Position numbers and translations under genes: made by a program. Shown in pieces: positions 1 through 9,352 of a stretch of DNA of 64,000 bases. The DNA lies in contig CAXXWS020000003.1 in NCBI GenBank assembly GCA_963665325.3, forward strand, positions 928,001 to 992,000, in the 5' to 3' direction. The notes under the pieces are model-generated. The model was not told where the DNA came from and did no database searches. It saw only the letters and a list, made by a program, of their open reading frames with translations. Every line of letters begins with the position of its first letter. The first letter of the stretch is position 1. This DNA is from Alphaproteobacteria bacterium (GTDB taxonomy: Bacteria; Pseudomonadota; Alphaproteobacteria; Bin95).

Positions 1-2587
1 CCTGAGGGACTTCGCCCTGCGTTTCAGGCCGACGTCGCAACCCGGCGGTTTGGGGAGCAACTGGGTGCAACTCTCCGAGTCCTCCGACGGGTGTGACGGC
101 GGCCGCGGCGTTGGCACACGAGTGACGGCAATCGTTCCGAACGCGGAATTCGCCCTTCAGTTCCGCGCCAGATACGGCAACCAATGGATCGTGTCGGACG
201 TCGCCCGGGCGATATCGCTCGATCCGACCCGAGACCTCCGCACCGAGGTGGCGGCGGGCATCAGCGACCTGTCGGTCGACACGCTCGTGCCGGACACCGT
301 GTGTCCGGCCTACGACGACCCGGCGACGCCAGGGGACGAGGCAGGCTCGTTCTTCGTCAACATCGGTTTCACCACCGTGGACCCGGTCCACGTCAACTAC
401 GAGAAGGTGGCCGGTTTCGTGGTGGCCGATGACGTGACGGTAGCGAACGGAACGGCGGAACTCGTCGCCGATTCGTTCCACACTCAATTCGGATACCGGG
501 TGAAGATCACTCCCACGATCTGGGGTGAGGACGTGGTGGTGAGTGTGCCGGCCGGGGCCGTGACTCACCTGGAGACCTCGATGCCCAACCTGGCCTCGAA
601 CGAGTTCAGGCGGAAGACCTCAAACGGCGAAGACTGCGCTCCCGAAGCGGCGGTGCCGATAGTCGCATTCGTGAAGATCTACGACGGCACCCCCTCGGAC
701 GGCTCATGGCCGGCGGGCGACGTGATCCAGGCAAGTCTGCGCTTCACCGAACCAATGGCGGTTTCGACAGCGGGCGGCATCCCGACCCTGACCTTGCGCC
801 TCGGAGACGGAGACGATGCCGCCGAAGTGCAGGCCACCTATACCCGCCTCGATACCCAAAACGACGCCTATTTCGAATATGCCGTGACGCCCGGTCAGGG
901 ATTGGTGCGCCAGGTCAAACTGGTGGAGAACAGTCTCACGCTGAACGGCGGACAGATCGCAGCCGCTTTCGGAGAAATCGCAGCGGAGCTCGACCATCCC
1001 GGTGCCAGCAAACACCAGCTGCCCCGCGCCCTGACCGCAAGGTGGCAGAAGTTGCCCAAGGTGCACCCGGGGAAGGACAAGAAATTCGTGGTGCGCTTGA
1101 AGTTCAACCGTTACACGACGATCGGCCCACGCGACCTCCGCGAGCATGCCGTTTCGGTGACCGGAGGCGCTATCGACAACGCGTGGAGGGTCAAGGATTC
1201 CAACGGCAACCCATCCAGCAAGCTGTTCGCCGTCAGGGTGGTGGCTGACTCCGACGATCGGCCGGTGACCCTGTCGCTGACCGCCGACGGCGAATGCAGT
1301 GAGCAGGGGGCGATCTGTACGGCGGACGGGGCACGTCTCTCCAACGCGCCATCCGTCACGATTTCCAATGCTGGCACCATGATTTCGGCAGCGGACGCCG
1401 AAGCTCACGAGGCGCCCGGTGCTGAGCTGGTGTTCGACGTGACGCTCGACAGGGCCGTCGATTACAAGGTCAAGGTCAACTACCAGACGGTCGATGGCAC
1501 CGCCGTGGCGGGCGAGGACTACACGGCGGTGAACGGCACCCTCGTCTTCAAGAGGGGCGAAACCTTGCAGACGGTGTCGGTGCCGGTGCTGGAGGACGCT
1601 CATGAGGACGACGGCGAGACGCTGACGCTCGTGCTGTCCGACCCGTTCCACGGGCGTATTGCCGACGGCGAGGCTGTGGGCACGATCCGGAATACCGACC
1701 CGATGCCGCAGGCCTGGCTGGCGCGGTTCGGTCGCACGGTTGCGGACCAGATACTCGATGCCGTGGATGGACGCATGACGGCGTCGCCGGTTCCGGGAAT
1801 GGAACTGAGCGTCGCCGGCAGGCGGATCGGCGCCGGGGCGGTGGGGAACGGGTTGGTTGCGCTCGACGCAGAGGCGCGCTTCGGTGCGCTCAGGAACTGG
1901 CTGCGTGGCGAAGCCGAGGAGCAACGGCGATCCGGGGAAACGCGGGCGCTGACGGGCCGGGACCTTCTGACGGGCTCGTCCTTTGCGCTGACTGAGGGGA
2001 GCCCGGAGGGCAGCATCGGGACGCTTTGGGGCCGGGGCGCAGTCTCGCGCTTCGACGGGCGCCAGGGGAAGGTGACGCTCGACGGCGAGGTCGAGAGTGC
2101 GATGCTGGGCGCGGACTTCACGCGCGGTCGCGGGACAGCGGGGCTCGTGCTGTCGCGCTCGCGCGGCGAGGGGGAGTACCGTTCCGGTGAGGCCGACGGC
2201 GAGATCGAGGCGACGCTCACGGGCATTTATCCCTGGGGCCGCTATGCGGTGGACGAGCACCTGTCTCTCTGGGGCGTGCTGGGCTATGGCGAGGGCAGGT
2301 TGACGCTGACCCCCGGGACCGGGTCTCCGATGGGGACGGACATGGACCTTGCGATGGCGGCGGCGGGCTTGCGCAGTGTGCTGATGCAGGCGCCTGCGGA
2401 GGGCGGCCTGGAGCTTTCGACGGTCTCGGACATGCTGTTTGTGACCACGGGCTCGGAGGCGGTGGGCGACAATCTTGGGGCTTCGGACGCACAGGTCACG
2501 CGTCTCCGGGTCGTGAGTGTGCTCTCGGTATCTGATGGCGGGATGGTCACGTTGTTCGATGGTTTTCAGGCGTCGGGCCGGGCGTGA
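1..2587 (+). pseudogene. Large surface/autotransporter-like protein with a Calx-beta domain; 5' part outside the window, C-terminal beta-barrel cut at about 2510 by a transposon
   Basis: Frame is open from position 2. Calx-beta motif (LVFDVTLDR...VNYQTVDGTAVAGEDYTAVNGTLVF...EDDGETLTLVLS) is followed by a barrel-like segment (WLARFGRTVA...LWGRGAVSRFDG...LGAD) that stops abruptly after VTRLR. Confidence 0.75.
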
Positions 2588-2759
2588 CGGCGGGGGTGTC
2601 GGACGGCCGTCGGCGCGTCAAGCCGCTTCGCGGCTCCTGCGCTGCGCTCCGGCCCTTCGGGTGACCCGCCGCCGTCCCTCCGACGGAGTGCATCCATGGC
2701 CGTAAGCAAGCTTCCGGCCACGGGCCGGCCGCTTTACGCAGTGTGACAATGGGAGCGGT

Positions 2760-2820
2760 GTTACCCGTTACCGTTACCCTCTCTCCCTAGGGGTTCGAGG
2801 CGGTAACGGTTTTCGGTAAC
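2760..2820. repeat. Convergent iteron-like array: 3x GTTACC, CCCTAGGG palindrome, 2x GGTAAC
   Basis: GTTACC at 2760, 2767, 2773; CCCTAGGG at 2785-2792; GGTAAC at 2802 and 2815. Confidence 0.75.
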
Positions 2821-3785
2821 GTGTCCCTGCGGTCGTTGCCGTTGAGGGCGGCGAGGCGGTATCCGCCTTCGGATGCGCGCTCGACGCGTCCTTCGCGGAC
2901 GAGCCTGTGCAGCGCCTCGGCGACGGTTGCGGGCCGGGTTGCCGCGCGCTCGCGGATCCGGCGCTGGGAGAGCGGCGCGTCGGCGTCGGCGAGGGCCTGC
3001 AGGATGCGCCGTTCGGGGGTATCCGGCTCCGGCGCCTGGTCTTCCGGCGTCTCGCGCAACCGCAGGGCGGGGCGCTCGTCGTCGTCGGCGAGTTCGATCT
3101 CGAGGTCTTCGAGGCCAGGGGCGTCGCGATGCTCGACGGTCATGAGGATCTGGCGGTCTCGCCGGCGCAGGTACAGATTCGAATCGCCCCAGGCGTGAAG
3201 TTCGCTGCTGCCGCGCAGCGCCTGCCCGGGCCGGGAGCCGCCGCTCTTTCGTGCGTGATGGACGAGGAGGACGGCGGTTTCGAAGCGGCGCTGTATGTCG
3301 CGCAGGAAGCCCAGCATGGGGGCGACCTCGGCGACGGTATTTTCGTCGACGCCGTGCAGGCGCACGAGGGGGTCGAGGACGACGAGGCGGGGTGAGACGC
3401 GCTCCACCGTCTCGACCAGGCGCTGGCGATCGGCGCGATGGTCGAGACGCAGCGTGGGCACGTCGATGACGGCGATGTCGAGGGTCTCGAACGCGGTGCC
3501 TGCCGCCTTTGCGATGCCCTGGAGGCGTGCGCGCACGATATGGCCGGCGTCCTCGGCGGCGAACAGCAGCACGGGGCCGCTTGCGGCGGGACGGAAGTGG
3601 CGCAGGCAGGGGACGCCGGCGGCGACCGCGACGGCGATGTCGAGTGCGAGGAAGGATTTGCCGCACTTGGGCTCGCCGCCGACGATGCCGACGCCCTGCT
3701 CGGACCACAACGCCTCGACCATCCAGCGGCGCGCCTGGGGGCGCTCTTCGAGCTCCGCCGGCGCCCGTGTCGGGAAGCCCTTCAC
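2787..3785 (-). CDS. AAA_25/RepA-like (SF4-type) helicase/ATPase with C-terminal wHTH
   Basis: GTG start overlaps the ExeA stop. Walker A GEPKCGKS, LVVLDPLVRLHGVDEN, LLVHHARK, LRGSS; C-terminal LSQRRIRERAATRPATVAEALHRLVREG. Confidence 0.8.
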   Translation of the reverse strand: MKGFPTRAPAELEERPQARRWMVEALWSEQGVGIVGGEPKCGKSFLALDIAVAVAAGVPCLRHFRPAASGPVLLFAAEDAGHIVRARLQGIAKAAGTAFETLDIAVIDVPTLRLDHRADRQRLVETVERVSPRLVVLDPLVRLHGVDENTVAEVAPMLGFLRDIQRRFETAVLLVHHARKSGGSRPGQALRGSSELHAWGDSNLYLRRRDRQILMTVEHRDAPGLEDLEIELADDDERPALRLRETPEDQAPEPDTPERRILQALADADAPLSQRRIRERAATRPATVAEALHRLVREGRVERASEGGYRLAALNGNDRRDTLPKTVTASNP

Positions 3786-4615
3786 CGCCGCGCCCTCCTC
3801 GGCTTGGCGGGTTCGCCCAGGGTCTCGATGAAGAGCTTCTCGTCGAGGACCTCGCGCTCCTTCTCGGCGGCGGCGGCGAGCAGGGCGTCGGCCATGACGG
3901 TGAGCGCCCGCGGGTTGCCGTCGGCATGGGCGACCAGGGTGTCCTTGAGGCCCGCGGTCATGAGGCCGGGATTGCCGGCCTGCTCGATCAGATGGTCGAG
4001 CAGGGCCGCGAGGTCGCCGGCCTCGGCCTTGGTCATGACCAGGCGCTGGCGGATGCGCGAGGCGATGGGCTGCAGATCGGGCTGGCGGAGCTTGTCGAGC
4101 AGGCGCGTGTCGCCGGCGAGGACGACCGAGAGGATGGCGCGCGAGTCGAAGTCGGTCGAAGCCAGCAGGCGGATCTCGGAGAACACCGAGGGCAGCAGCT
4201 CCTGGGCCTCGTCGACGAGCACGACGGGGCGCATGCGGGTATCGTCGACATGGGCGAGCCAGCGCTCGCGCAGGCTTTTGAAGCTGGCCCAGCGGTTGTT
4301 GTACATCAGGTCGACGCCGAACATCTCGCCGATCTCGCGGTAGAAGTCGGACAGCCGGGAGGAGGGATGGGTGATGGCGGCGATGCTGAGCCCCTCGCAG
4401 CGGCCGAGACGGTCGGCGAGCAGGCGCAACGCCACACTCTTTCCGGCGCCGGGCTCGCCGGCGATCAAGGCGAAGCCGCCCTGGCGCACCAGGTGGCGCT
4501 CGATCCTGAGGCAGAAGCTGTCGACGGCAGGCGTCGCCATGAGACTGTCGACCGGCAGGTCGGTGGCGAAGGGGTTCCACTTGAGCCCGTAGAAGGTGAG
4601 CAGTTCCCGGTTCAT
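3782..4615 (-). CDS. ExeA-family AAA+ ATPase (TnsC/MuB/IstB-like transposition helper)
   Basis: YGLKWNPF, Walker A GEPGAGKS, Walker B VLVDEAQ, VVLAG, GNPR. Confidence 0.85.
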   Translation of the reverse strand: MNRELLTFYGLKWNPFATDLPVDSLMATPAVDSFCLRIERHLVRQGGFALIAGEPGAGKSVALRLLADRLGRCEGLSIAAITHPSSRLSDFYREIGEMFGVDLMYNNRWASFKSLRERWLAHVDDTRMRPVVLVDEAQELLPSVFSEIRLLASTDFDSRAILSVVLAGDTRLLDKLRQPDLQPIASRIRQRLVMTKAEAGDLAALLDHLIEQAGNPGLMTAGLKDTLVAHADGNPRALTVMADALLAAAAEKEREVLDEKLFIETLGEPAKPRRARR

Positions 4616-6087
4616 GGCGCATCTCCCCGATCTTCGTCCTCGCCCGGACCGGGCGTCTTGTCATGGGGCAGCCAGGCCGGCGGCAGGCCGGTTGCGGCCT
4701 GGGCGTCGAGCATGCCCTTGAGCAGCGGCGGAAGTTCCCCCGTCCCCGCGCCGCCATTGCCATCGTTGCCGCCGGGGCCGGCGGGACGGCGCACGCCATC
4801 GGCGTTGCCGCGCTTGTCGAGGGGGTACAGCGTGCACAGGCGCTCGCCGCCTCGACCGTCGATCAGATCGACGCTGGCGAGGTTCCAGCGCGCGTAACGG
4901 ATCCAGGCCTCGCGCAGGTGGCGCCACGGCTGTGGCACCTGGTAGCGGATGCCCTCGACCGAGACGGTGCCGTCCGAGCGCCTGAGCGTGCGCTTCCTGG
5001 TGATGCGGAAGGCCGCCTTGAGCTCGGCCGAGCCGGGGCAGGATCTCGACGCGTCGACGCTCCCGGCCAGGCGTTGATGCGGCGTCATGCCGAGCTCGCG
5101 GTGCTTGCGGCGGTGATAGTCCTGCTCCAGCCAGGCGATGGTGGCGTCGTTGAGCATCTTCAAGGTAAGCGCGTCGACGCCTTCGAGCTGAGCCATCAGG
5201 CGCGATTCGACCGTGCCCCAGAACGACTCGATCTTGCCGTTCTGATGGGGGCTGTAAGCGAGCGTCGTGACCCCCGCGATGCCGAGCCGGTGCAACCCCT
5301 CCTCGACCTCGCCCGCGGTCATCGCCGCGCCGTTGTCGGTCAGCAGGGACCTCGGCAGACCGCGCTTCATGAAGGCCTGGCAAAGGCCGTGGACGAACAC
5401 CTCGGCGGTCTCGGCGAGGTACCACTGAAGGTGGCAGCCGAGGCGCGAGTGGTCGTCGAGGAAGCCGAGCAGGATCGGCGTCTTCCACTCGCCCGAGGCG
5501 GTCAGCACGCGACGCTTGGCGCTGTGCATGTCGGCGTGCCACAGGGCGTGAGAGCGCGAGACCTCGTAGCTCAATACCTCGCGGGCTTCGACCGCCGGCC
5601 TGGCCTCGCTCTCATGCCACTTGCGCCGGCGCTTGCGTACCAGCCCGCGAGCCCGCATCGCCCGGGTCAGCGTCGCGTAGGACGGTATCGGGCCGAGCTC
5701 GGGATCGGCCTCGACCCGCGCGGCCAGATTCTCGTGATGAAGCTGCGCCGACCACGACGGATGCGCCCGGTACTGCTCGTGCAGCGCCTCGATCAGCGTC
5801 GGCGACATCGCGCGCGGGCGCCCGGCATCGGCGCGCGGGCGCCGCTTGAGCGCCCCCACCGGATCGTTGTCCGCCGCCCGCGCCTGGTAGTACCAGCGCT
5901 CGATCGTGGACACCGCGAAGCGCACCCGGCCCTTGCCGGACGGGTGATCCCACTCGCGTTCGGCAAGCCGCTCAAGCTCGGCGTGCAGCCGCCCCGCCGG
6001 CGGCGGCGAGGCCAGAAGCGGCCCGACCACCGCGAAGCGCAACCGCGCCCACCGGTCGCGACGCTCGCTCCCGTCGTTGCTGTTCAT
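4612..6087 (-). CDS. DDE transposase (rve core, Mu/IS481-like) with N-terminal HTH and Mu-C-like tail
   Basis: LWHADM, FLDDHSR, LLTDNGAAM, NGKIESFW, DGTVSVEGIRYQVP. Confidence 0.9.
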   Translation of the reverse strand: MNSNDGSERRDRWARLRFAVVGPLLASPPPAGRLHAELERLAEREWDHPSGKGRVRFAVSTIERWYYQARAADNDPVGALKRRPRADAGRPRAMSPTLIEALHEQYRAHPSWSAQLHHENLAARVEADPELGPIPSYATLTRAMRARGLVRKRRRKWHESEARPAVEAREVLSYEVSRSHALWHADMHSAKRRVLTASGEWKTPILLGFLDDHSRLGCHLQWYLAETAEVFVHGLCQAFMKRGLPRSLLTDNGAAMTAGEVEEGLHRLGIAGVTTLAYSPHQNGKIESFWGTVESRLMAQLEGVDALTLKMLNDATIAWLEQDYHRRKHRELGMTPHQRLAGSVDASRSCPGSAELKAAFRITRKRTLRRSDGTVSVEGIRYQVPQPWRHLREAWIRYARWNLASVDLIDGRGGERLCTLYPLDKRGNADGVRRPAGPGGNDGNGGAGTGELPPLLKGMLDAQAATGLPPAWLPHDKTPGPGEDEDRGDAP

Positions 6088-6135
6088 TCCGGCATCCCCC
6101 TCGCTGCTTCGTGGAGGTGCCGATGATGCGGTGCC

Positions 6136-6750
6136 CTATCCGTGCATCATAGAAACGCTTTCTGCGGGCGAAGCCGGACCTGCGCCGAGCGCGCAAAAGC
6201 CGGTCCACGGCATCAGCCAGACCAGGCTCCGCAGCAGCCGCGAGCGGAAGCCACGGCCCCGCATGATGCGCAGCAGCCGGCGCAGCGGCGCCTCTTCGGG
6301 CGGCGCCGCCAGCTCGCCCCGTCTCGCCTGCCACTCCCGGGTCAGCGGGAAGGCTTCCAGCCACCAGCGCCGCCAGCGCTTCAGCGTCGAGGCCGGAACC
6401 CCGCACCGCCGCGCGATCGTCTGCAACCGCGCGCCGCCGGCCACAGCCAGCGCACTCACCACAAGGAACAGCGCCCCGACGTAAAAGCGCCTGCCGAAGA
6501 AACGCACCGACGGCGGCTTCACGCGGCGTCGGCACACCGAACAGCACAGGCTGAAGCGCCGAACGTCGTTCCGAAGATTCGCCGCCAGACCGTGCGGCTT
6601 GCGCGGGTAGCTCGCGCTGTGAAGCGCGCCGCCGCAGCGCGGGCAACCCGCCGCCCGGCACGCCTCCGCCTCGGCCGCGTCGACCTGCTTCAGAAAATCC
6701 CAAACCCGGGCGTTGGAGAGATTGGAGTGCCGGAACAGCTTGTGCGACAT
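6136..6750 (-). CDS. Transposon-associated Zn-ribbon/HTH protein (DUF6431-like)
   Basis: CPRCGG...CCSVCRRR and ASTLKRWRRWW; directly upstream of the transposase. Confidence 0.6.
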   Translation of the reverse strand: MSHKLFRHSNLSNARVWDFLKQVDAAEAEACRAAGCPRCGGALHSASYPRKPHGLAANLRNDVRRFSLCCSVCRRRVKPPSVRFFGRRFYVGALFLVVSALAVAGGARLQTIARRCGVPASTLKRWRRWWLEAFPLTREWQARRGELAAPPEEAPLRRLLRIMRGRGFRSRLLRSLVWLMPWTGFCALGAGPASPAESVSMMHG

Positions 6751-7258
6751 TGGGGCCGTCTCAGGTTGATGTCACTGTCACCGAGACAAGCCCTCCGGCG
6801 GCCTTCTTGCAAGATCGCCGGGGGGCACCCAATCCAAAACCTCGATTAATCCGAGCCGATCAGCCCCTGATCGCCGCTGAAAGCCTGCGCCCGCTCACCG
6901 TCGCGGACGCTCCGCCCGAGCGCGAGCGCCAGAGAGGACAGGAAGGCCCGGACGAGCGCCGCCAGCCAGGCCGCGGCGACGGTCTCCAGGTCGAGGCCGA
7001 GCGCCGGCGCAACGGGGGTGCAGAGCGCCGCAAGGGCGATGCCGCTGAGCACGATGGCGCGTTCGCTCCCTGTGGGCGGGCGCGATCCCGGGGCGGTGTC
7101 CGGCTCCCGGTCCGGCGCGGTCGATCTGCGGGTCATGGTAACGGTCTCCCATTCTACGGGGCGGAGCGTCTTCCTCCGCCCCGGCCATCCTCGTCCCGCC
7201 CCGGGCCGGTCTCCGCCTCCTGGCGGCGATTCACCCACGCTGAGCCAGGGAGACCGTA

Positions 7259-9352
7259 ATGCGCGGCATCGGCGGCAGCACGCTGCGGGGCGGCCAGACC
7301 GTCTTCCACGGCATCCGCATGTGGGGCCAGCTGTTCCAGGCCGCCCTGCTGTTCGCCGCCTTCATGACCGTCGCGGTGCCGGCCTGGAACCTCTGGCGCT
7401 CGACCTCAGGCGCGGAATGGTATGCCGCGGGCATGGTGACACTGGCCGAGACCAAGCTCGCGCTCGGCTACGAGCGGGACTCGGGCCAGGAAATCCGCTT
7501 TCCCGACGGCACCCGCCGGGTACTCGCCATCCGCGACATCGCCGTCTCGGTGCCGGCTCTCGAGGCGCGCGAGAAGCTCCTGGACGAACTACTGGCCAGC
7601 GCCTGGCTGGGCCTCAAGACGGGCGGCGGGCTGATCGCGGTCTTTCTCGTGGCGTTCTGGTACCGCGGCGCGCGGCTCGGGCGCCAGCGCCGCCTGCGGG
7701 GCGCCGAGCTGGTGAGCGCGGCCGAGCTGCGCCGCCGGGTGCGCCCGGCGCACCTGCGCCTGCTCGACCGCGCGCCCGGCTCAGGCAGCGTGCGGCCCTG
7801 GCGCATCGCCGGCATCCCGTATCCCGAGAGGACCGAGACCCAGCACACGATCGTCTCGGGCACCACCGGCTCGGGCAAGACGGTGCTGATCTCGGACCTG
7901 GTGGCCCAGATCCGCGCCCGCGGCGAGCGCTGCGTGATCTACGACAAGATGGGCTCCTACACCGCGGCCTTCTTCGATCCCGCCCGCGACGTGCTGATGA
8001 ACCCGCTCGATGCCCGGGCGCCCTGCTGGTCGCCCTTCCTCGAAGCCAGGAACCCCCGCGACTTCGACATGATGGCCGCCGCGCTGATCCCGCAGCAGAA
8101 GGACACCGTGGACCCCTTCTGGGTGACGGCGGCACGCCAGCTCTTCGCCAACGGCGCGGGCGTGCTGCGCGAGAAGGGCGTCACGCAGAACCGGGTGCTG
8201 GTCGACCACCTGCTGAAGACCGACCTCACCGCGCTCGCCCAGGCGATGGAGGGCACGGTCGCGCAGTCGATCGTCGATCCCGAGAACCCCAAGACCGCGC
8301 TCTCGGTGCGCGCCATGCTGACCGCCAATCTCGCCGCCTTCGAGTTCCTGCCCGACGAGGGCACGCCCTTCTCGATCCGGGAGTGGATCTCCCGGGAGCG
8401 GCAGGACGGATTCCTGTTCCTGACCTCGCGCGGCGACCAGCATGCCAGTCTCAGGGGGCTGATCTCGACCTGGCTGGAAATCGCGGTCAACGCCATGCTG
8501 TCGCTCGCCCAGGACGATGGCAGGCGCATCTGGGTGATCCTCGACGAGCTGCCGACCTTGCACCAGGTGCCCTCGCTCCAGCCCGGCCTCGCCGAGTCCC
8601 GCCAGTTCGGCGGCTGCTTCGTGCTCGGGGTCCAGGTCGCCTCGGCGCTGCGCGACCTCTACGGCAGGAACGGCGCGGAGACCATCTCGGGCTTGTGCGG
8701 CACGCGGGTGGTGCTGGCCGCCCCGGACCGGGATACCGCGCAGTGGTCCGCCGACAGCCTGGGCCGCAGCGAGGTCGAGGAGATCGCCGAGGGCTACTCC
8801 TACGGCGCCAACACCATCCGCGACGGCGTCTCGCTCACCCCGCGGCGCGAGCTGCGCGCGCTGGCCCTGCCGTCGGAGATCATGCGGCTTGAGAACCTGG
8901 AGGGCTATCTCAAGTTCCCCGGCCCCTTCCCGGTCGCCTCGATCCGGCTCCGGTATGTGAAACGCCCCGCCGCCGCCGAGCGCTTCGTGCCGCGCGAGGA
9001 GGGCGCGGAGCTGTCCGCACGGCCGGAAGACGCGGCCGCTGCCGGGGACGCGCCCGTCGAAGTGCTTGCGGAAGACGGGGAATCGGGGACTCCGGAGTCC
9101 GCGTTCCGGCGGGGCGAGCCGAACCTGCCGCCGCTTCCGGAAGAGACGGACATCGCACCGTCCCGCCGCAATGGCGTTGCGGATGCGGCTGCCGGCGACG
9201 GGACCGGCCCCGGCAAGGCCGGCAACCGGCCGGACGCGCCGGCGCCGGCGGCCGGGGCGCGAGGCGACGGGGAGCCCGATGCCGGCCCCGGACCGGCGGC
9301 GAAGCCCTCCGCCGGCACGGAGGAGCCCGCCGCGCGCCCCGACTGGGTCTGA
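7259..9352 (+). CDS. traD: Type IV coupling protein, TraD/TrwB family
   Basis: Two N-terminal TM segments, LRGAEL, Walker A GTTGSGKT, DPFWVTAAR, ILDELPTL, ESRQFGG; low-complexity tail. Confidence 0.92.
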   Translation: MRGIGGSTLRGGQTVFHGIRMWGQLFQAALLFAAFMTVAVPAWNLWRSTSGAEWYAAGMVTLAETKLALGYERDSGQEIRFPDGTRRVLAIRDIAVSVPALEAREKLLDELLASAWLGLKTGGGLIAVFLVAFWYRGARLGRQRRLRGAELVSAAELRRRVRPAHLRLLDRAPGSGSVRPWRIAGIPYPERTETQHTIVSGTTGSGKTVLISDLVAQIRARGERCVIYDKMGSYTAAFFDPARDVLMNPLDARAPCWSPFLEARNPRDFDMMAAALIPQQKDTVDPFWVTAARQLFANGAGVLREKGVTQNRVLVDHLLKTDLTALAQAMEGTVAQSIVDPENPKTALSVRAMLTANLAAFEFLPDEGTPFSIREWISRERQDGFLFLTSRGDQHASLRGLISTWLEIAVNAMLSLAQDDGRRIWVILDELPTLHQVPSLQPGLAESRQFGGCFVLGVQVASALRDLYGRNGAETISGLCGTRVVLAAPDRDTAQWSADSLGRSEVEEIAEGYSYGANTIRDGVSLTPRRELRALALPSEIMRLENLEGYLKFPGPFPVASIRLRYVKRPAAAERFVPREEGAELSARPEDAAAAGDAPVEVLAEDGESGTPESAFRRGEPNLPPLPEETDIAPSRRNGVADAAAGDGTGPGKAGNRPDAPAPAAGARGDGEPDAGPGPAAKPSAGTEEPAARPDWV

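Follow-up and report, generated by a model that had tools for sequence, protein, structure and literature searches.

The window considered here is a 64,000-nucleotide (nt) stretch of an alphaproteobacterial genome (GenBank assembly GCA_963665325.3, contig CAXXWS020000003.1, positions 928,001 to 992,000 of the forward strand), and our subject is a transposon near its left end. The element carries four co-oriented genes on the minus strand, which encode, in order, a Zn-ribbon/HTH_23 protein, a DDE transposase, an AAA_22 ATPase, and an AAA_25 ATPase (Table 1). Each junction between the last three genes is a 4-nt overlap (ATGA at 4612 to 4615 and GTGA at 3782 to 3785), and a compact array of short repeats lies over the end of the AAA_25 gene. 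An earlier note on this DNA had proposed a transposon class that replicates itself, reporting four co-oriented genes with the last three translationally coupled, and three GTTACC and two GGTAAC repeats around a palindrome over the stop codon of a helicase gene; both of these descriptions proved accurate.

Table 1. Features of the transposon, in window coordinates (aa, amino acids)
Feature	Position	Strand	Description
Whole transposon	2514-6897	genes on -	4,384 bp; ends common to 24 genome copies
AAA_25-side end	2514-2562		Terminal TGAGTG; subterminal CTGATGG (2532-2538) and TCGATGG (2556-2562)
Iteron-like array	2760-2820	read on +	3x GTTACC, CCCTAGGG-containing spacer, 2x GGTAAC
AAA_25 ATPase with C-terminal winged helix-turn-helix	2787-3785	-	332 aa, GTG start; Pfam AAA_25 E=4.6e-36
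AAA_22 (ExeA/GspA-like) AAA+ ATPase	3782-4615	-	277 aa; Pfam AAA_22 E=5e-20
DDE transposase (HTH_32 + rve)	4612-6087	-	491 aa; PHROG transposase E=2.4e-40
Zn-ribbon (CxxC...CxxC) + HTH_23 protein	6136-6750	-	204 aa; Pfam HTH_23 E=3.4e-6
Zn/HTH-side end	6840-6897		Inward sequence TGAGCGGGCGCAGGCTTTCAGCGG...AATCGAGG

The genome from which the window comes (5.58 Mb in 5 contigs, C1, C2, and C4 among their labels) holds 24 copies of the element, all with exactly the ends of the window copy, 2514 and 6897, which corrects the extent of 2511 to 6845 given in the earlier note. The termini read TGAGTG...CGCTCA, that is, TG..CA ends, and direct repeats flank 20 of the 24 copies (5 bp, n = 10; 4 bp, n = 8; 6 bp, n = 2). 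Twenty-one copies show 0 nt differences and have all four genes intact, an identity that polishing of a repeat-rich assembly could inflate; two others are one base short, and one is broken by an insertion sequence. The element is therefore a discrete, very active DDE transposon. The earlier note had allowed that the helicase gene might lie outside the true ends; both the AAA_25 gene and the array are internal to them. No terminal inverted repeats are obvious in a single copy, as that note had stated, and they become recognizable only through comparison of relatives, which reveals imperfect ones (TGAGTG... versus TGAGCG...), each with two subterminal T(C/T)GATGG-like repeats that are presumed transposase binding sites. 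Comparison of copies within nine genomes indicated that ends of the family read TGAGCG..., with a pair of subterminal T(T/C)GATGG-like repeats spaced by about 23 bp, and the elements of these nine multicopy groups measure about 4.35 to 5.3 kb. The broken copy (locus L174, C1:2290596-2297053) is split by a 2.07-kb insertion encoding a DDE_Tnp_1 transposase, with four element bases (2787 to 2790, at the AAA_25 stop codon amid the array) present on both sides of it.

The transposition proteins are of recognizable types. The best NCBIfam match of the transposase is IS481 (NF033577) at 123.9 bits, below the cutoff of 224, which places it outside the IS481 family at the curated score, and its Pfam rve score is 27.4 versus a cutoff of 32.6. 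Residues D186, D251, and E287 are the same in all 14 relatives compared, which range down to 49% identity, and by their spacing they would form a DD(35)E triad. The AAA_22 ATPase matches the PHROG category "DNA transposition protein" (E=1.4e-23) and is probably a MuB/TniB-type partner of the transposase. A Pfam search of the element proteins found no TnsA, TniQ, or resolvase.

The AAA_25 protein is a two-part protein in its predicted structure. An AlphaFold2 model (predicted local distance difference test score [pLDDT], 72.5) has a RecA-like core at residues 32 to 243 and a winged helix-turn-helix at residues 257 to 311, in agreement with IclR/GntR/MarR-type HTH matches at residues 258 to 309; the third helix of this domain, predicted to be the recognition helix, spans residues 285 to 297, with residue 285 first. 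By sequence, the sole solved relative is RepA of RSF1010 (1g8y; E=2.4e-8 over residues 35 to 196), with which the Walker A and HHA.K motifs align. The 14 relatives compared, as little as 49% identical, all retain K43 of Walker A, D138 of Walker B, and H176-H177-x-x-K180. Foldseek placed RAD51 paralogues on top, with RadA, DnaB, and RepA also matched; RepA ranked 31st by E value but had the best target template modelling score (TM-score), 0.68. The PHROG matches are helicase parts of phage primase-helicases. Helicase activity is thus likely but not certain, because the Foldseek matches are RecA-fold proteins in general. Close relatives of this ATPase-winged helix combination were absent from 72,556 plasmids, which yielded four matches, all at most 31% identical, and 50,697 phages gave distant matches, at most 32% identical among the matches listed; IMG/VR contributed two loci at 32 to 34% identity.

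Homologues are abundant. For each of two proteins of the element, more than 7,800 were scored, and the record titles name Alphaproteobacteria, Gammaproteobacteria, Chloroflexota, Gemmatimonadota, Actinomycetota, Acidobacteriota, and others, with the caveat that short repeat contigs can be misbinned. Many of the relatives' genomes hold several identical copies of their element. A scan with a transposase alignment, taking one genome per species, gave 80 loci, and an AAA_25 match follows the ExeA-like gene in 63 of them; the 17 exceptions comprise four truncated copies, ten loci that stop too soon to judge, and three that have room for the gene and lack it (L066, L071, and L083). A metagenome scan that started from the AAA_25 protein gave a further 80 loci, with an ExeA-like gene directly upstream in 69 of the 72 that could be assessed and a transposase in all 49 with enough upstream DNA. 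The gene order on which the earlier note had staked its proposal is therefore conserved. On the transposase tree, presence or absence of AAA_25 requires a single change, with the AAA_25-less elements, including Tn6049 of Cupriavidus metallidurans, in one clade; the Zn/HTH gene was found in relatives of both lineages. Identity to the window proteins in the closer clade is 61 to 79% for AAA_25 and 63 to 92% for the transposase.

The array follows the AAA_25 stop codon in almost all elements that carry the gene. In the window, GTTACC occurs at 2760, 2767, and 2773 and GGTAAC at 2802 and 2815, and CCCTAGGG at 2785 to 2792 spans the stop codon (2787 to 2789); read on the gene strand, the array consists of 2 + 3 convergent GTAAC pentamers. 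Half of the ten GGTAAC/GTTACC hexamers of the window fall inside these 61 bp, and the triple repeat was matched in 0 of 100 shuffles. Among 104 distinct AAA_25 3' regions, a detector found at least 2 + 2 convergent units in 77, most commonly as 3 + 3; the remaining 27 include several arrays that are degenerate by eye and about 10 regions with another conserved sequence after the stop. The spacer between the two sets of units has a median length of 20 bp (exactly 20 in 24 of 53 arrays). Relative to the end of the stop codon, arrays begin at positions from −71 to +101 nt (median, +19 nt), and the distance from array to element end is 0, about 190, or about 1,000 bp, so that the array stays tied to the stop. 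With a strict detector, no array was found in the Tn6049 loci (L009 and L010) or in the AAA_25-less L066 and L071.

Several loci depart from this layout. Two other conserved post-stop sequences (L098, L109, L118, and L126; L130, L145, L153, L156, L166, and L167) replace or accompany the array, are common to unrelated samples, and may be further inserted elements. At L083:5521-5590, a different convergent array with CTTTGCG units follows a partial ExeA-like gene, and no AAA_25 gene was found in that element. Loci L047 to L056 were considered as deletion derivatives without the C-terminal half of AAA_25 and the array, and this was rejected: a nested insertion interrupts the gene, beyond which the C-terminal half and a degenerate array are still present.

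Each array uses one pentamer, with all units alike, and lineages differ in the pentamer used (GGAAC, GTAAC, GAAAC, or GGAAG, with GTAAC in the window, L034, and L035). The change appears to be accompanied by change in the protein: residue 285 is N, K, or H in 29 of the 34 proteins with GGAAC arrays versus 4 of the 43 with other arrays. In a tree built from the ATPase part only, five independent pairs on well-supported branches were compared, and the array trait went the same way in 4.3 pairs on average and the opposite way in 0.1, an underpowered comparison (median sign-test P value = 0.125). The covariation between pentamer and recognition-helix residue is suggestive, as is the resulting picture of an array that behaves like iterons matched to the winged helix. 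As DNA, the array of the window element folds with a minimum free energy of −15.9 kcal/mol (z = −1.9), and 10 of 200 shuffles fold equally well; there is no T-run at the array, a scan found no terminator-like site there, and Rfam gave no match at E values up to 1. Decay of the middle left unit is seen in the window, L032, L034, and L035, where the outer units hold their 13-bp spacing.

A fifth gene is found in many of the relatives closest to the window element. It encodes a 289-aa protein with Pfam matches to Toprim_2 (E=4.8e-10) and DUF3991 (E=8.2e-9) and no NCBIfam match, lies about 50 to 100 nt after the array and inside the element ends, and is present in 28 of 161 loci (L014 to L034, L045, L052, L053, and others; for example, L014:8405-9271). 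These loci represent at least eight lineages in the clade to which the window element is nearest. The proteins all keep the Toprim glutamate, E201, and the D251-x-D253 motif, and nearly all of the top 25 Foldseek matches listed for the predicted structure are DnaG-type primases, T7 gp4, and Twinkle, at TM-scores of 0.3 to 0.4. The window element has about 190 bp of noncoding DNA in the place of this gene, in common with the four-gene relatives L012 and L013, and the gene has been gained or lost between close lineages.

The AAA_25 gene and its array also occur behind other transposition genes. In three metagenome contigs (L100, L110, and L114), the AAA_25-winged helix gene follows istB of IS21 type, to which it is translationally coupled in L110 and L114 (IstB_IS21 E=3.6e-60 and 1.6e-56, respectively); the C-terminal end of a transposase (IstA) lies just upstream in these two, with a Pfam Mu-transpos_C_2 match in L110. 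In L100 and L110, the AAA_25 stop is followed by a GAAAC-type array; the stop of L114 could not be placed, so that this locus has no array call and stands outside the AAA_25 tree. In that tree, L100 and L110 nest among proteins of Tn6049-like elements, and the cassette has therefore moved between transposon families. Locus L145, whose AAA_25 protein is 51% identical to that of the window and whose transposase and ATPase are only about 25% identical, may represent a third host-transposon lineage.

The surroundings of the copies tell more about their recent history. No target duplication flanks the window copy. The GGTCG on its left recurs to the right of the copy at C2:25283-29666, and the CCGT on its right recurs to the left of that copy, as if the flanks had been swapped. 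An autotransporter-like gene with a Calx-beta domain (window 50 to 2513) is cut at 2513 and resumes in frame from C2:29667. These observations point to the two copies being reciprocal products of recombination, an unresolved cointegrate, or an assembly misjoin. Within about 120 kb of C1 (1982775 to 2101890) lie seven copies, six of them co-oriented, with two more at 2.29 and 2.33 Mb, a cluster that may reflect local hopping or a favored target region. The gene adjoining the window copy (7259 to 9352, plus strand) encodes a type IV secretion coupling protein (TrwB_AAD_bind E=6e-142), and the copy therefore lies within or beside a conjugative region. At C4:66268-66391, a segment 94% identical to window 6875 to 7000 comprises the last 23 bp of the element and 103 bp of flank without the element, and it may be a solo end or a duplicated flank.

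Public sequencing runs were compared with the element for circles and excess copies. In four of the 24 runs found, all of them available as assembled contigs, contigs break at 2514 and 6897, and no contig joins 6897 to 2514; such contigs drop rare forms. Some short-sided joints, with sides of 19 to 41 nt, were also listed. A regular-expression search likewise found no abutted element ends in the element's own genome or in any fetched locus, where assemblies would miss transient circles. In run X1, the element contigs have depths of about 580 to 670, compared with 23.6 for the bin of the left flank, a ratio near the chromosomal copy number; such contig depths are not copy numbers and are uninformative on circles. 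The noncoding segment between array and end (window 2593 to 2707) is variable, as contigs of other runs diverge or break there.

Taken together, the element may be a Tn6049-type (Mu-like) DDE transposon with an acquired replication-initiation cassette, a reading that we regard as roughly an even call. It is favored by the discrete, active nature of the element, by a gene order and array that are conserved across a deep lineage from several phyla, by the linkage of gene to array, by the iteron-like behavior of the units, by the primase-like gene, by the portability of the cassette, by a layout like that of Staphylococcus aureus pathogenicity islands (SaPIs), and by the affinity of the AAA_25 protein to RepA and phage primase-helicases. 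In such an element, the transposase and its AAA+ partner, in roles assigned by homology, would cut the TG..CA ends, capture a target, and join the two, with the 4- to 5-bp duplications as the observed outcome. The winged helix of the AAA_25 protein would read the pentamers (GTAAC here) just 3' of its own gene, and the protein would assemble at the array dyad as one ring or two opposed rings and open the DNA, a step modelled on the action of the self-loading Rep helicases of SaPIs at their origins. Priming would fall to the element's own Toprim primase-like protein in five-gene relatives and to the host primase in four-gene forms. The purpose may be to copy element DNA, whether in place or as a circle that has been excised or copied out, which would give more integration substrate without loss of the donor copy. 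Loaded within the element, a helicase could serve the copy-out step or amplify a circle. Which form of the DNA would be replicated is a guess.

The cassette is accessory and is not needed for transposition chemistry, because copies with a dead helicase-like gene have transposed and the Tn6049 lineage lacks the gene. The proposal of a self-replicating transposon class thus survives in that the architecture fits a replication module, and it gives way in that transposition needs no helicase. Somewhat more tentatively, and at a little less than even confidence, we envisage a widespread bacterial DDE transposon lineage with a small replicon of its own, built from a RepA-type helicase that loads itself, an iteron origin matched to it, and, in more complete versions, a Toprim primase. 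Such an element could copy its own DNA, as a circle or in place, before or during transposition, with a modular cassette that has moved between Tn6049-like and IS21-like elements.

Several observations weigh against a replication-initiation cassette. None of the 20 AAA_25 matches in genome G001 is intact, and three identical composites there, with a frameshift and a nested insertion sequence in AAA_25, each have their own 5-bp target duplication, although an intact copy may have existed earlier or be missing from the assembly. The Tn6049 lineage likewise transposes without the gene. RecA-fold ATPases include nonhelicases, such as the RAD51 paralogues that lead the structural matches of the AAA_25 model. 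The spacer is not AT-rich (GC content, 0.62 versus 0.64 in the surroundings; lower in only 29 of 53 arrays), and its conserved motif, C(C/T)CTA(C/T)AG, is unexplained by a replication model. The covariation test had only its five pairs to draw on, with a median P value of about 0.125. The model of the Toprim protein has low confidence (pLDDT, 59.6), and its TM-scores of only 0.3 to 0.4 make a primase assignment provisional; the gene itself is absent from the window element and has no homologue in the whole of its genome. Finally, replication, circles, and helicase activity are predictions from sequence.

Much of this would suit a site-specific DNA-binding ATPase that sits on the array and controls or assists transposition without starting replication. 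Such a protein might organize the nearby end, remodel the transpososome, mark "self" for immunity or copy number control, or branch-migrate the strand transfer intermediate. The cassette has been found only behind pairs of transposase and AAA+ ATPase (Tn6049-like, the roughly 25%-identical pair of L145, and IS21-like), and the array of many relatives lies right against the subterminal transposase sites (L074, L081, L136, and L161). A spacer of ordinary composition, fixed length, and conserved motif is easily accommodated, as is a fold that is as near RAD51 and RadA as replicative helicases, and closely related elements differ in pentamer, as self/nonself discrimination predicts. However, the array lies anywhere from 0 to about 1 kb from the element end and yet is fixed to the stop codon of the gene, and a controlling ATPase offers no obvious role for a Toprim primase-like gene directly after the array. 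The layout, moreover, equals that of a known helicase-origin pair, and the sequence similarity is to RSF1010 RepA and phage primase-helicases. We therefore consider control of transposition the strongest competitor, though a rather unlikely one.

If the AAA_25 gene and array were instead cargo, either a remnant of a small-plasmid replicon or a defense or maintenance function riding along, it would be easy to see why transposition proceeds without the protein, why the Toprim gene comes and goes between close lineages, and why the cassette is able to switch transposon families. Passengers of this kind would hardly be expected to show one change of presence or absence on the transposase tree, a divergence similar to that of the transposase in the closer clade, invariant catalytic motifs, or translational coupling to the ATPase gene both here (GTGA) and in the IS21 context, and no close relative was found in the 72,556 plasmids or among the phage matches listed; we judge cargo to be improbable. 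Very improbable is an array that acts as a nucleic acid hairpin (a 3'-end stabilizer, a terminator, or a single-stranded DNA structure) with a symmetry unrelated to the winged helix: its arms are complementary, up to 18 bp perfectly so in L039, and it lies at the 3' end of the operon, but the fold is weak in the window element, neither a T-run nor a terminator-like site nor an Rfam match accompanies it, one unit has decayed in four elements while the outer spacing was held, and the units change in concert between lineages, tracking the recognition-helix residue.

Mu, IS21, Tn7, Tn5053, and Tn6049, in which a DDE transposase is paired with an AAA+ ATPase, are thought to leave all DNA synthesis to the host. 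Against this background stands a lineage that is abundant in environmental genomes of several phyla and in which selection maintains a helicase-like ATPase, a matched array, and, in many cases, a primase-like gene. Should the replication-initiation reading be right, the long obscure step from strand transfer or copy-out to replication would become testable with element-encoded parts, bursts like the 21 identical copies in one genome would be explained, and the lineage would form an evolutionary bridge between transposons and small replicons (SaPI, P4, and RSF1010), as well as a bacterial counterpart of self-synthesizing transposons. If the module controls transposition instead, it would add an undescribed third ATPase layer to such elements. 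The matched changes of pentamer and recognition helix may in addition offer a natural set of orthogonal protein-DNA pairs.

The core of the element is of a known kind. Its nearest named relative in the plasmid collection is Tn6049 of C. metallidurans CH34, which has the same first three genes in the same order. In the pMOL30 copy, the Zn/HTH "transposase" is 40% identical, the IS481-like DDE transposase about 50%, and the "gspA" ATPase 52%. Tn6049 likewise has TG..CA termini, short imperfect inverted repeats, short target duplications, and many copies per genome. Published descriptions give Tn6049 as 3.5 kb in 12 copies (PMC2864759), with inverted repeats and 4-bp repeats (PMC4739549). Unlike the 4,384-bp element, Tn6049, at about 3.5 kb, has a 71-aa open reading frame where the 332-aa AAA_25-winged helix gene stands; it has no convergent pentamer array by the strict detector and belongs to the separate AAA_25-less clade. 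The cassette of helicase-like gene, array, and, in some relatives, primase-like gene is apparently undescribed in a DDE transposon: we found no description of it there or in IS21-type elements in open-access papers and preprints, with ISfinder, TnCentral, and supplements outside the search.

As in IS21 (IstA/IstB), Mu (MuA/MuB), and Tn5053/Tn7-type elements, an AAA+ ATPase gene lies directly downstream of the DDE transposase gene, and the PHROG matches are to transposases and "DNA transposition proteins" of transposable phages. Mu likewise makes target duplications of 5 bp. IS21, Mu, and Tn5053/Tn7-type systems are not known to encode a RecA-fold helicase, iterons, or a primase. IS21 has been counted in a preprint among families with circular intermediates that presumably use copy-out-paste-in (10.1101/2023.06.07.543989).

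RSF1010 RepA (PDB 1g8y and 1nlf) is closest by sequence to the AAA_25 protein, which has the motifs of RepA/DnaB-like superfamily 4 helicases. The solved RepA chain of 279 residues aligns with the ATPase core only and has no counterpart of the winged helix. In RSF1010, iterons are bound by a separate initiator, RepC, and the primase, RepB', is not of the Toprim type.

The arrangement of the cassette most resembles that of SaPIs. As described in PMC9371898, SaPI Rep is a helicase with a C-terminal winged helix; its penta- or hexanucleotide iterons lie just downstream of rep, half on each side of an AT-rich center and in opposite directions; and the primase is island encoded, fused to Rep in SaPI5. 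The element likewise combines an ATPase motor and C-terminal winged helix with short downstream repeats in two opposed sets, and with a primase-like gene in the module, here only in five-gene relatives. The same paper groups SaPI Rep with the AAA+ helicases, next to superfamily III and MCM (PMC9371898), whereas the motor here has a RecA fold and is RepA/DnaB-like; given these different ATPase classes, the likeness is one of analogy, not homology. Where the SaPI center is described as AT-rich, the spacer here has about 20 bp of ordinary GC content and a conserved motif, and the host element in that description is a phage-inducible island with an integrase instead of a DDE transposon.

With Polintons/Mavericks and casposons, the element shares the concept alone, that of an integrase or transposase element equipped with replication genes. 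Those elements encode a protein-primed family B polymerase, together with a retroviral-type integrase or Cas1. The element described here is without a polymerase and carries instead a helicase-like gene and an origin-like array, to which some relatives add a Toprim primase-like protein.

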